Assembly: GCF_054482525.1 (NCBI RefSeq) | Contig: NZ_CM137006.1 | Strand: one strand, 5' to 3' | DNA: 64,000 nt | Shown: positions 48,001 through 54,000 of the stretch, piece by piece | Position numbering within the stretch: the stretch's first letter is position 1 | Layout of the letters: every line of letters begins with the position of its first letter | Made by a program: the position numbers

Positions 48001-51000
48001 CAGGACACTAACGAAACCCTCTTCTACCGTCTGGTAAACAATCATCTTGATGAGATGATGCCTGTTATTTATACCCCAACCGTCGGCGCAGCCTGTGAGC
48101 GTTTTTCTGAGATCTACCGCCGTTCACGCGGCGTGTTTATCTCTTACCAGAACCGCCACAATATGGACGATATTCTGCAAAACGTGCCGAACCATAATAT
48201 TAAAGTGATTGTGGTGACTGACGGTGAACGTATTCTGGGGCTTGGTGACCAGGGCATCGGCGGGATGGGCATTCCGATCGGTAAACTGTCGCTCTATACC
48301 GCTTGTGGCGGCATCAGCCCGGCGTATACCCTTCCGGTGGTGCTGGATGTCGGAACGAACAACCAACAGCTGCTTAACGATCCGCTGTATATGGGCTGGC
48401 GTAATCCGCGTATCACTGACGACGAATACTATGAATTCGTTGATGAATTTATCCAGGCTGTGAAACAACGCTGGCCGGACGTGCTGTTGCAGTTTGAAGA
48501 CTTCGCACAAAAAAATGCGATGCCGTTACTTAACCGCTATCGCAATGAAATTTGTTCTTTTAACGATGACATTCAGGGCACCGCGGCGGTAACGGTCGGC
48601 ACACTGATCGCAGCCAGCCGCGCGGCGGGTGGTCAACTGAGCGAGAAAAAAATCGTCTTCCTTGGCGCAGGTTCAGCGGGATGCGGCATTGCGGAAATGA
48701 TCATCGCCCAGACCCAGCGCGAAGGATTAAGCGAGGAAGCGGCGCGGCAGAAAGTCTTTATGGTCGATCGCTTTGGCCTGCTGACGGACAAGATGCCGAA
48801 CCTGCTGCCTTTCCAGACCAAACTGGTGCAGAAGCGCGAAAACCTCAGTGACTGGGATACCGACAGCGATGTGCTGTCACTGCTGGATGTGGTGCGTAAT
48901 GTAAAACCAGATATTCTGATTGGCGTCTCAGGACAGACCGGGCTGTTTACGGAAGAGATCATCCGTGAGATGCATAAACACTGTCCGCGTCCGATCGTGA
49001 TGCCGCTGTCTAACCCGACGTCACGCGTGGAAGCCACACCGCAGGACATTATCGCCTGGACTGAAGGTAACGCGCTGGTCGCCACTGGCAGTCCGTTTAA
49101 TCCAGTGGTATGGAAAGATAAAATCTACCCTATCGCCCAGTGCAACAACGCCTTCATTTTCCCGGGCATCGGGCTGGGCGTTATTGCTTCCGGCGCGTCA
49201 CGTATCACCGATGAGATGCTGATGTCGGCAAGTGAAACGCTTGCTCAGTATTCGCCGCTGGTCCTGAACGGCGAAGGCCTGGTACTACCGGAACTGAAAG
49301 ATATTCAGAAAGTCTCCCGCGCAATTGCGTTTGCGGTTGGCAAAATGGCGCAGCAGCAAGGCGTGGCGGTGAAAACGTCTGCCGAAGCTTTGCAACAAGC
49401 CATTGATGATAATTTCTGGCACGCCGAATACCGCGACTACCGCCGTACCTCCATCTAAGCCTGCGCCCGGTGGTGAAAGCTGCCGGGCAATTTTCCTCTC
49501 CCTTTTTCAGATCTCATCCATACTGGGTAGTGGCGAATAAATCTCATTTGCCTCACCTGCTATGCAGAACATCATCCGAAAAGGAGGAACTATGAAGGCT
49601 GCAGTTGTTACGAAGGATCATCATGTTGACGTTACGGATAAAACACTGCGCTCACTGAAACATGGCGAAGCCCTGCTGAAAATGGAGTGTTGTGGTGTAT
49701 GTCATACCGATCTTCATGTTAAGAATGGCGATTTTGGTGACAAAACCGGCGTAATTCTGGGCCATGAAGGCATCGGTGTGGTGGCAGAAGTTGGCCCAGG
49801 TGTCACCTCATTAAAACCAGGCGATCGTGCCAGCGTGGCGTGGTTTTACGAAGGATGCGGTCATTGCGAATACTGTAACAGTGGTAACGAAACGCTCTGC
49901 CGTTCAGTTAAAAATGCCGGATACAGCGTTGATGGCGGGATGGCGGAAGAGTGCATCGTGGTGGCGGATTACGCGGTAAAAGTGCCAGATGGCCTGGACT
50001 CGGCGGCGGCCAGCAGCATTACCTGTGCAGGGGTCACCACCTACAAAGCCGTTAAGCTGTCAAAAATTCATCCAGGGCAGTGGATTGCTATCTACGGTCT
50101 TGGCGGTCTGGGTAACCTCGCCCTGCAATACGCGAAGAATGTCTTTAACGCGAAAGTGATCGCCATTGATGTCAATGATGAGCAGTTAAAACTGGCAACC
50201 GAAATGGGCGCTGATTTAGCGATTAACTCACGCACTGAAGACGCCGCCAAAATTGTGCAGGAAAAAACCGGTGGCGCTCACGCCGCGGTGGTGACAGCGG
50301 TAGCTAAAGCTGCGTTTAACTCGGCGGTTGATGCTGTACGAGCAGGCGGTCGTGTTGTGGCTGTCGGTCTGCCGCCGGAGTCTATGAGCCTGGACATCCC
50401 ACGCCTTGTGCTGGATGGTATTGAAGTGGTCGGTTCGCTGGTCGGCACGCGCCAGGATCTCACCGAAGCCTTCCAGTTTGCGGCCGAAGGCAAAGTGGTA
50501 CCGAAGGTCGCCCTGCGTCCGTTAGCGGACATCAACACCATCTTTACTGAGATGGAAGAAGGCAAAATCCGTGGCCGTATGGTGATTGATTTCCGCCGCT
50601 AAGAGGCCTTTGCTGCGACTGCCATGTTCGGGTCGCAGCATCGCACACTCTCCAACATGAAATGGCTAAATGGATTATTGTTGCGTAGGAAGGAACAATA
50701 ATGATAGTGTTCCTGGTGAAGGAACGCTACTGAGAGTAAAGACACTAATGAAAATGGCCAATCATCCCCGCCCGGGGGACATTATTCAGGAATCACTGGA
50801 CGAACTTAATGTCAGCCTGCGCGAGTTTGCCAGAGCAATGGAAATAGCTCCCTCAACGGCAAGCCGATTGCTGACCGGAAAAGCAGCTTTGACACCAGAA
50901 ATGGCGATTAAACTTTCCGTGGTGATCGGCAGTTCGCCGCAAATGTGGCTGAATCTGCAAAACGCCTGGAGTCTGGCAGAGGCAGAAAAAACGGTGGATG

Positions 51001-54000
51001 TGTCGCGATTACGCCATCTGGTTACGCAATAAAAAAAATGGCGCTTCTTAAAGCGCCATTTTCAGCTTAAAGTTCAAAAGAGATTATATCCCTTCTTCAC
51101 TCTCTTTTTTCGCTTCTGCCTTCTCGATTTCACGATACCAGCGCGGATGGTGTTTCTTCGCCCAGCGACGGCTCACCTTCCCTTCGATCATCCCTTTAAT
51201 CGATCCTTTCACCCAGAATGCCATATACATATGGATCAGGATGGCGTGGATCAGGATGATACCCGCAGCCGCGTGAATCAGCAGGCTGTAGCGAACAACC
51301 TGCATCGGGAAGTACTGCGCAAAGTACGGACGCCAGATAATCACCCCGGTCACCAACAGCACGAAAATCATGCTCATGATCGACCAGAACATCATCTTTT
51401 GCCCGGCGTTGTACTTACCGACATCCGCCACTTTGTGCTCATTGCCTTTTAATACTTCGACAATGTTCAACAGCCACGGAATATCTTTCTTATCCGGGAT
51501 GTTGTGATGCACAAAACGCACAAACATAAACATCAGCGCGACGAAAATCGCAATGCCGAAGAACGGGTGCAAAATGCGCCCCATCTGCGGCGTACCGAAG
51601 GTTTGCGTCAGCCATTGCAGCGTCGGGAAGAAGAACGAAATCCCGGACAGCGCCACCAGGAAGAAGCAAATCACCACGGTCCAGTGACAGGCGCGATCAA
51701 TAAATTTGGTGCGCACAATCATTTTCGACTTACTCATGATGATCCTCCTCGTCATCGTCCACTTCCTTATTCGGGCCAATACCGATGTAGTGGAAAATCA
51801 ACCCGGCAAAAGTGGCAATAAAGCCAGCCGCTGCCAGCGGTTTCAACGCGCCTTTCCACAGGCTTACCGAGGTATCGATCTTCGGATCTTTCGGCAGACC
51901 GTGATACAGCTCCGGCTGATCGGCGTGATGCAGCACGTACATAACGTGCGTACCACCGACCCCTTCCGGGTTGTAGACGCCAGCATGTTCGTAACCACGC
52001 GCTTTCAGTTTCGCCACGCGCTGTTCCGCCAGCTCCAGCATCTCCTTCTTGGTGCCGAAGTGGATAGCCCCGGTCGGACAGGTTTTCACACAAGCCGGTT
52101 CCTGGCCGACGCTGACGCGATCGACGCAGAGCGTGCATTTATATACCCGGTTATCCTCTTTGTTGAGGCGCGGAATATTAAACGGACACCCGGCAATGCA
52201 GTAACCACAGCCGATGCAGTTTTCCGACTGGAAATCGACAATCCCGTTAGCGTACTGAATGATTGCACCAGCAGACGGGCACGCCTTCAGGCAGCCCGGA
52301 TCTTCACAGTGCATACAGCCGTCTTTACGGATCAGCCACTCCAGCTTGCCGTTCTGTTCGGTTTCGCTAAAGCGCATCACCGTCCAGGACTTGGCGCTCA
52401 GATCGGCGGGGTTATCGTAAACCCCGACGCAGTGCCCCACTTCATCACGGATGTCGTTCCACTCTGAACACGCCACCTGACAGGCTTTACAGCCGATACA
52501 GGTGGAAACGTCGATAAGTTTCGCGACTTCTGCTTTGTAATCACGCACCTGCGAAGGCGGCGTGATGGAGTTAGTTGCGGACCTTTTGATAATGTCCTGC
52601 GTTTCCATAGCCATCTGTTCGCCCCCTTACGCCTTCTCGATGTTTACTAAGAACGCTTTATATTCCGGCGTTTGCGAGTTTGCATCACCGACATTAGGCG
52701 TCAGAGTGTTAGCGATATAACCTTTGCGCGCGACACCCTCAAAGCCCCAGTGGATTGGAATACCCACCGTTTCAACCTGCTGACCGTTTACATTCAGCGG
52801 CTTCAGACGGCGCGTTACCACAGCCACCGCGCGGATAAAGCCACGCTTGCTGGATACGGTGACACGGTCGCCATTGGCGATGCCTTTCGCCGCCGCCAGC
52901 GTTTCGCTGATTTCCACAAACTGTTCCGGCTGAGCAATTGCGTTGAGCAACGCGTGCTTTGTCCAGGTATGGAAGTGCTCGGTCAGACGATAGGTCGTAC
53001 CCACATACGGGAACTGCTCTTTTTTACCCATCCGCAGCGCGTCTTGTTCATACAGACGAACCACCGGGTTAGACACCACGTTCGGATGCAGCGGGTTAGT
53101 GCCCAGCGGCGTTTCGATTGGCTCGTAGTGTTCCGGGAACGGACCTTCCGCCATTTTGTTGATGGCAAACAGGCGTCCCATCCCTTCCGGCTGCATGATA
53201 AACGGCCCGGTTGGCGTACCCGGTGCGGCATTGCCGAAGTCCGGAATATCGTTACCCGTCCACTTGCTGCCGTTCCACTGGATCAGCATCCGTTTCGGAT
53301 CCCACGGTTTACCGTTGATATCCGCCGAAGCACGGTTGTAGAGTACGCGACGGTTGAGCGGCCACGCCCAGGCCCATCCCAGCGTATTCCCCAGACCGGA
53401 CGGATCGGAGTTATCGCGGTTAGCCATCTGGTTGCCCTGCTCTGTCCAGCTACCGGTGTAGATCCAGCAAGAAGATGCGGTTGTACCGTCATCACGCAGA
53501 TGCGCAAAGCTACTCAGCAACTGACCTTTCTTCGCAATCAGCACGCCATTAGCATCATAGAGATCTTCCAGCGCATAGCCGTTGTTCTCTTTAGCTACTT
53601 CGTCAGATTGCGGTTCGTGCGGCTGCTTGTAGTTCCAGCTCATCTTCATCAGCGGTTCTACGCCTTTACCACCTTCGGCCTGGTACAACTCGCGCAGATG
53701 ATGGTAGATACCCGCCAGAATTTCGCCGTCGTTACGCGCTTCGCCCGGCGCGTCCTGACCTTTCCAGTGCCACTGTAACCAGCGACCGGAGTTAGCGATA
53801 GAACCATCTTCTTCAGCAAAGCAGGTCGAAGGCAGACGGAATACTTCAGTCTGAATAGAAGCCGGATCGACATCGTTCGACTCGCCGTGGTTCTGCCAGA
53901 AGGTAGAGGTTTCAGTCACCAGCGGATCGATAACCACCATGTACTTCAGCTTGCTCAGGCAGCTCACCACTTTGTTTTTGTCCGGGAAGGACGCAACCGG

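Follow-up and report, generated by a model that had tools for sequence, protein, structure and literature searches.

When an antitoxin gene stands without a toxin, does it still belong to a toxin-antitoxin system, and if not, what keeps it? We addressed this question for yddM in a stretch of 64,000 nucleotides from contig NZ_CM137006.1 of RefSeq assembly GCF_054482525.1 (hereafter the window, meaning the whole stretch analysed), where the gene encodes a HigA-family antitoxin with no toxin partner beside it. The explanation that we favour, and consider likely, is that yddM was the antitoxin gene of an ancestral higB-higA pair from which higB was deleted, and that the antitoxin autoregulates at the operator it inherited and is kept by selection.

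An antitoxin gene and its missing toxin

All 851 bp tested were a 100% match to Escherichia coli PCN033, and annotation was transferred from the RefSeq record of that strain, which names the yddM product 'HigA family addiction module antitoxin'. The features on which the first part of the argument rests are as follows.

49592-50602, plus strand: adhP, the upstream neighbour of yddM (PCN033 RefSeq annotation and open reading frame (ORF) list)
50740-50750, plus strand: deletion scar AGACAC-TAA-TG (alignment with higB-bearing alleles)
50748-51032, plus strand: yddM, encoding a 94-aa HigA-family XRE helix-turn-helix antitoxin without a toxin partner (TIGR02607, PDB identity and annotation)

YddM scored 93.7 bits against NCBIfam TIGR02607 (antidote_HigA; cutoff 47.7 bits), carries the Pfam domain HTH_3 (PF01381; 39 bits, E = 8e-10; cutoff 23 bits) and is identical at 93 of 94 residues to the 'antitoxin HigA' of E. 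coli in PDB entries 2ICP and 2ICT, a structure that a review names as YddM of CFT073 (PMC3968373). On every feature that can be tested from the sequence it is a member of the HigA family, and the first-pass annotation, made from the DNA alone, had rightly called it an antitoxin-type XRE helix-turn-helix protein. That annotation ran the element from 50692 to 51032. Its end holds, and its start falls on the first base of a palindrome, where there is no start codon. By homology to the Rts1 HigB-HigA complex, YddM would be expected to bind and neutralise a cognate HigB. A longer, 120-aa ORF from an ATG at 50670 was rejected as a real gene, as its N-terminal extension is not conserved because other strains have higB there; the region is promoter or higB in relatives.

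The adhP stop ends at 50602 and yddM starts at 50748, leaving a spacer of 145 bp, too short for a 92-aa HigB, just as had been pointed out before. The first-pass annotation had proposed a search of this spacer for decayed toxin fragments, and a permissive tblastn with HigB (word size 2, E up to 1000) found nothing beyond chance in 50591-50760 or in the 64-kb window, the best hit having an E value of 0.67.

A different picture is seen in other strains. A total of 1329 of the 5426 complete E. coli genomes have an extra gene between adhP and yddM. In strain ABU 83972 it encodes a 92-aa protein (WP_000605675.1) whose stop codon overlaps the yddM start (TGATG), and this protein matches the Pfam HigB-like toxin family (PF05015, E = 4e-17) and the structure of the Rts1 HigB endoribonuclease (4MCT, E = 1e-31). 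Beyond E. coli, a scan of one genome per species gave 41 loci encoding YddM relatives. The toxin gene is present at 36 of them and intact in 32, and in 32 of the 41 a full-length HigB frame ends exactly at the antitoxin start, in toxin-first order. The synteny adhP/maeA-higB-yddM-fdnI is common to E. albertii, cryptic Escherichia lineages, many Citrobacter species, Pluralibacter and Enterobacter. Outgroups share the toxin-bearing arrangement, which marks the toxin-less E. coli allele as the derived state, produced by deletion. Homologues of YddM with an intact toxin upstream do exist, and the earlier suggestion of a toxin-antitoxin remnant finds strong support in both the E. coli and the related loci. 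There is no complete type II toxin-antitoxin module (higBA) at this locus, where no toxin adjoins the antitoxin; it is an orphan antitoxin from a degraded toxin-antitoxin pair.

The alignment with higB-bearing alleles also revealed the anatomy of the loss. In both the window and K-12, the entire higB frame is cleanly gone, along with ~51 bp of the spacer before it. Within the scar, CAC followed by TAA corresponds to the final codon of higB (His92) with its stop, which overlaps the start codon of yddM. In several further toxin-less strains the junction is ACACTGATG, the same letters as in toxin-bearing strains, where they hold the last higB codon, the stop and the yddM start; the toxin-less junctions read ACACT(G/A)ATG, again the last higB codon plus stop. 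Because these strains retain ACACTGATG, the right-hand breakpoint probably fell immediately before the final codon of higB. AGACAC may represent higB codons 4-5, joined through CAC microhomology together with two further small deletions. What remains of the toxin is at most a few codons, the last one with its stop and perhaps two 5' codons, so that only 2 to 5 codons are arguable. First alignments had pointed to a single-step deletion between two ATGAA repeats; this alternative to a path of several steps is less likely because other toxin-less alleles keep ACACTGATG.

Deletion is not the only way in which the toxin has been lost. In EC958, of sequence type 131 (ST131), higB is a pseudogene frameshifted by a 1-nt deletion, CACCGACTC to CACCACTC (L001:1889-2166, lying between the window-equivalent positions 50747 and 50748). 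Exactly this ST131-type allele occurs in 545 complete genomes and is a second, independent route to the toxin-less state in E. coli. Among the complete E. coli genomes, a collection biased towards clinical isolates, higB is absent from ~75%, carries the ST131-type frameshift in ~10% and is apparently intact in ~14%, the last class not having been checked for other lesions. Similar losses are found in other genera. Citrobacter sp. FP75 has an internal higB deletion with the operator kept and the antitoxin intact, C. portucalensis A60 has a higB frameshift beside an intact antitoxin (loci L012 and L019, respectively), Chimaeribacter californicus (L035) and Xenorhabdus khoisanae retain only the last 20 to 29 toxin codons, and X. 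lircayensis has a higB frameshift (Xenorhabdus loci L032/L033). Decay that starts with the toxin appears to be recurrent in this family.

The putative operator and promoter region

Much of what the deletion left upstream of yddM is conserved, and three elements are central here.

50679-50685, plus strand: conserved block TGTTGCG, containing the proposed -35 element (at least 90% conserved, 21 promoters)
50692-50713, no strand: putative operator palindrome 1, GGAAC-N12-GTTCC, perfect (inverted repeat and conservation in 21 promoters)
50709-50725, no strand: putative operator palindrome 2, GTTCC-N7-GGAAC, its middle half-site shared with palindrome 1 (inverted-repeat search)

The perfect palindrome noticed in the first pass just upstream of yddM is palindrome 1, with half-sites GGAAC at 50692-50696 and GTTCC at 50709-50713; its arms reach 10 nt at 90% identity with one mismatch (AGGAACAATA / TAGTGTTCCT). 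A third half-site, GGAAC at 50721-50725, pairs with the GTTCC at 50709-50713 to form palindrome 2, which covers the region of the transcription start, predicted to fall around 50717-50719. The exact GGAAC-N12-GTTCC pattern occurs once in the 64-kb window. With one mismatch allowed, the window contains 2 matches against 1.3 expected, and 14 inverted repeats of at least 6 nt were found in 241 nt. Short inverted repeats being so abundant here, we rejected the palindrome as statistically significant by itself. Its weight comes from conservation across 21 promoters.

The promoter alignment combined the toxin-less promoter with 20 higB-bearing promoters and spans six genera (Escherichia, Citrobacter, Cedecea, Buttiauxella, Pluralibacter and Enterobacter). 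Positions at least 90% conserved in the 21 aligned promoters spell TGTTGCG-N6-G.AACA.T..T..TA..GTTCCT...GA.GGAAC. All three half-sites and the TGTTGCG block reach this level, as does the GA.GGAAC of palindrome 2, and the remaining positions are essentially scrambled. We regard this footprint, comparative as it is, as real evidence for a functional palindrome. A candidate extended -10 element (TG at 50702-50703, TAGTGT at 50705-50710) would lie inside palindrome 1 and fits the conserved TG-N-TA...T, and a possible -35 element, TTGCGT at 50681-50686, is located 18 nt upstream of it. A genomic SELEX (systematic evolution of ligands by exponential enrichment) study placed an RNA polymerase holoenzyme site in the K-12 adhP-yddM spacer (PMC3946193).

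The rest of the promoter is far more variable. Outside the operator, the two E. coli allele classes differ at ~40% of positions (50641-50747 compared with L005:1160-1315), with an abrupt boundary, while the first 98 nt of yddM are identical between the same classes and adhP is ~97% identical. Against the higB-bearing promoter of E. coli the window sequence agrees at 58 of 97 positions, which is no closer than its agreement with the Citrobacter or Buttiauxella promoters. With yddM and adhP so alike, neutral divergence cannot explain such a difference in roughly 100 bp of promoter; several small rearrangements or the import of a foreign promoter are both possible. A blastn search against plasmids for a foreign source of the toxin-less promoter returned full-length matches only on records of 0.2 to 4.9 Mb that resemble E. 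coli chromosomal sequence; on two E. coli plasmids of 65 kb the match is confined to the first 125 nt. A direct repeat, ATGAAATGGCTAA (50657-50669) and ATGAAAATGGCCAA (50748-50761, at the yddM start), brackets the promoter segment and could be due to chance or be the trace of a rearrangement.

One small rearrangement in this region can be seen, an inversion. In 1057-1063 of the 5426 complete E. coli genomes (~20%), including O104:H4 2011C-3493, 13P460A and STEC719, positions 50683-50693 hold, instead of GCGTAGGAAGG, its exact reverse complement CCTTCCTACGC. The inverted 11 nt form the loop of a perfect 9-bp quasi-palindrome with arms at 50674-50682 and 50694-50702.

An ACA triplet at 50742-50744 lies 6 nt before the yddM start codon. 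In a published table of the MazF regulon, yddM has the value 6, which, as far as the table entry goes, would fit this distance and trimming of the 5' leader by MazF (PMC5001579).

Selection on the orphan and what may keep it

To ask what keeps YddM is first to ask whether it is constrained. Across 16 Escherichia yddM alleles there are 48 variable sites, 44 of them synonymous. Among the 8 toxin-less alleles 12 sites vary; 11 of the changes are synonymous, and the only non-synonymous one is R89H in the window. With 214 non-synonymous sites in yddM and 68 synonymous ones, neutral evolution would make about three in four changes non-synonymous. These counts indicate strong purifying selection on YddM without its toxin. 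An identical protein (WP_000781370.1) is found in diverse toxin-less strains and in strains with the toxin gene, including ST131 EC958 and ABU 83972, and is also encoded in E. albertii; yddM itself is present in at least 5360 of the 5426 complete E. coli genomes. In toxin-less K-12, chromosomally tagged YddM gave peaks and a motif in chromatin immunoprecipitation with exonuclease digestion (ChIP-exo), and the protein is thus expressed and binds DNA (PMC6237786). According to a 2025 preprint using CRISPR interference and activation, changes in expression agreed with the binding sites of YddM. The Keio strain deleted for yddM is viable; hypersusceptibility to epetraborole has been reported for it, without complementation.

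In the explanation that we favour, an ancestral chromosomal higB-higA operon lay between adhP and fdnI, and when the higB frame was deleted in the lineage leading to the window strain, the start codon of yddM came to follow the promoter and operator almost directly. A dimer of YddM would most likely bind the three conserved GGAAC/GTTCC half-sites, and as these overlap the probable extended -10 and the transcription start, binding would repress yddM transcription. Such autorepression is most likely by analogy with Rts1 HigBA, in which HigA alone represses Phig ~211-fold through two operators over the -35 and -10 elements and repression is not increased by the toxin (PMC12266136). In a toxin-less strain the circuit would be simple negative autoregulation of a small XRE regulator, and YddM would presumably be retained for a host function, for example minor transcriptional regulation at a few other sites. 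The stand-alone regulator imagined in the first pass gains indirect support from the purifying selection, the K-12 ChIP-exo data (PMC6237786) and the repression by Rts1 HigA alone (PMC12266136).

Several observations pull the other way. The 11-nt inversion disrupts TGTTGCG and turns the left GGAAC half-site into GCAAC, and its presence in ~20% of genomes implies that the full operator architecture is not strictly required in toxin-less strains. A scan for consensus sigma-70 promoters came up empty in both allele classes, and the -35 and -10 elements were placed by conservation only. The AAGGA Shine-Dalgarno of higB is lost, and the window allele has a weak ribosome-binding site for yddM. We infer the binding of YddM at its own palindrome from the sequence. 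Finally, an orphan antitoxin is an expected transient stage of toxin-antitoxin decay, and the state recurs in at least 5 other lineages.

Some of the same observations would suit a stronger version of events, in which the antitoxin has been domesticated as a host regulator after toxin loss and its inherited autoregulatory promoter is being remodelled. This is suggested by the ~40% divergence outside the operator, the replacement of the higB ribosome-binding site and the 11-nt flip in ~20% of genomes, and we put it forward tentatively, as a possibility on the doubtful side.

Orphan YddM might instead be kept as an anti-addiction or immunity function that neutralises HigB arriving on plasmids, phages or recombined chromosomal DNA and so prevents post-segregational killing, a role that reviews have proposed for orphan antitoxins in general (PMC7354431). 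The cognate toxin does circulate in the same species (in the 1329 genomes counted above), and HigB homologues occur on 538 plasmid records, 99 of them from Escherichia. However, the truly plasmid-borne homologues are at most ~59% identical to the chromosomal toxin, and toxin-antitoxin pairs are usually specific. The matches with at least 94% identity are on very large records, of 0.25 to 4.9 Mb, in which this chromosomal locus is present and, in two cases, yddM is called under the match; they appear to be chromosomal sequences entered as plasmids. A chromosomal higB coming in would, moreover, bring its own yddM. We consider this account unlikely.

It is less likely still that yddM is an inert relic, functionless and intact merely because toxin loss was recent. 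Loss of the toxin beside an intact antitoxin is indeed common (the ST131 frameshift, Citrobacter sp. FP75, C. portucalensis, Chimaeribacter californicus and Xenorhabdus), and the toxin-less promoter region is scrambled and polymorphic. A relic would nevertheless be hard to reconcile with 11 synonymous changes against 1 non-synonymous change in the toxin-less alleles sampled, with the near-universal presence of the gene (at least 5360 of 5426 genomes), with an expressed, DNA-binding protein in K-12 (PMC6237786) and with the retained operator half-sites. A working system with its partner toxin acting in trans from elsewhere in the genome is very improbable, as nothing from the window speaks for it beyond the existence of other HigA-family loci in E. 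coli, such as ybaQ (PDB 2EBY), tblastn detected no HigB-like sequence in a search covering the 64-kb window, the toxin of the ybaQ-type pair is likewise missing from K-12 and HS (Bustamante and Vidal, PMC7232551), and the Keio strain without yddM is viable.

Surroundings, known systems and significance

The surroundings of the yddM promoter and gene comprise the following.

Local gene order: maeA, adhP, yddM, then convergent fdnI, fdnH and fdnG (ORF list and PCN033 annotation)
50611-50640, plus strand: hairpin after adhP, 9-bp perfect stem TGCTGCGAC/GTCGCAGCA, 12-nt loop, no T-run (inverted-repeat search)
51034-51063, called on the minus strand: GC-rich hairpin terminator with a 13-pair stem, common to the convergent yddM and fdnI (terminator scan)

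The hairpin after adhP is kept in both allele classes, where it forms the left edge of the region that differs between them; its loop differs in inversion-type alleles. The terminator scan called none at 50611-50640, and as the hairpin also lacks a T-run, read-through from adhP into yddM is possible. On the other side, the yddM-fdnI spacer (51033-51083) is 51 bp here, with the single shared hairpin terminator, and 406 bp in K-12; other strains have an additional 177 bp or 355 bp, or an IS200 insertion. The fdnG reading frame (52627-55038, minus strand) looks truncated in the mechanical ORF list, which we take to be an artefact of ORF listing at the in-frame TGA selenocysteine codon known in fdnG, and not the sign of a pseudogene.

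The closest known system is the HigB-HigA (YddM) pair of E. coli CFT073, NRG857c and ABU 83972, which is orthologous and has the same chromosomal position (adhP-...-fdnI), an antitoxin identical at 93 of 94 residues and the same operator core (GGAACAATAnTGATAGTGTTCC...GAnGGAAC). Compared with those strains, the window is missing the 279-bp higB together with its ribosome-binding site and ~51 bp of the spacer ahead of it, and its non-operator promoter is ~40% different. Bustamante and Vidal (2020) described the pair of a 279-bp toxin gene and a 285-bp HigA gene in NRG857c and CFT073, and the antitoxin only in HS and K-12 (PMC7232551).

The Rts1 system of Proteus vulgaris (PDB 4MCT, 4MCX, 6CHV and 9CHL) is likewise a toxin-first pair with a PF05015 toxin and a TIGR02607 antitoxin. 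It differs in being plasmid-borne and complete: its HigA matches YddM with an E value of 1e-18, its HigB is ~57% identical, and its operator sequences are different, with two separate 21-bp operators where the window has three shared half-sites and no toxin.

Antitoxins that outlive a degraded toxin form a class of their own, known from a Klebsiella pneumoniae survey and from the anti-addiction ccdA of Erwinia, for which roles as relic, regulator or anti-addiction module have been proposed (PMC7354431). Unlike that class, the yddM locus shows the ancestral pair, the scar, the population frequencies and the purifying selection directly. The other HigA-family solo of K-12, YbaQ (PDB 2EBY), is a HigA-like XRE protein matching YddM with an E value of 7.5e-9; it is a distant paralogue of 113 aa, encoded at a different locus outside the window. 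YbaQ also binds DNA by ChIP-exo, and its toxin partner is present in the adherent-invasive E. coli NRG857c, survives as a pseudogene in CFT073 and is missing from K-12 and HS (PMC7232551).

Earlier publications already cover the protein and its structure, its binding to DNA and its orphan state in K-12, and the practical consequence of our analysis is small. New here, and incremental, are the operator footprint, the anatomy of the deletion, the population frequencies, the signs that selection continued once the toxin was lost, and the promoter polymorphisms, including the 11-nt inversion.

For the biology of the family, the locus is a clean, datable case of toxin-antitoxin decay in which the toxin goes first and the antitoxin and operator persist under selection, with deletion as the route here, a frameshift in ST131 and independent events in other genera. 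In most E. coli genomes yddM is annotated as an 'addiction module antitoxin', and since ~75% have no toxin at the locus, 'autoregulated XRE regulator of HigA origin' would be the more accurate label. If the promoter variants do alter YddM expression or autoregulation, E. coli would hold three natural states of the circuit (toxin-bearing, toxin-less, and toxin-less with the inversion), and these would offer a natural test bed for the rewiring of toxin-antitoxin regulators.

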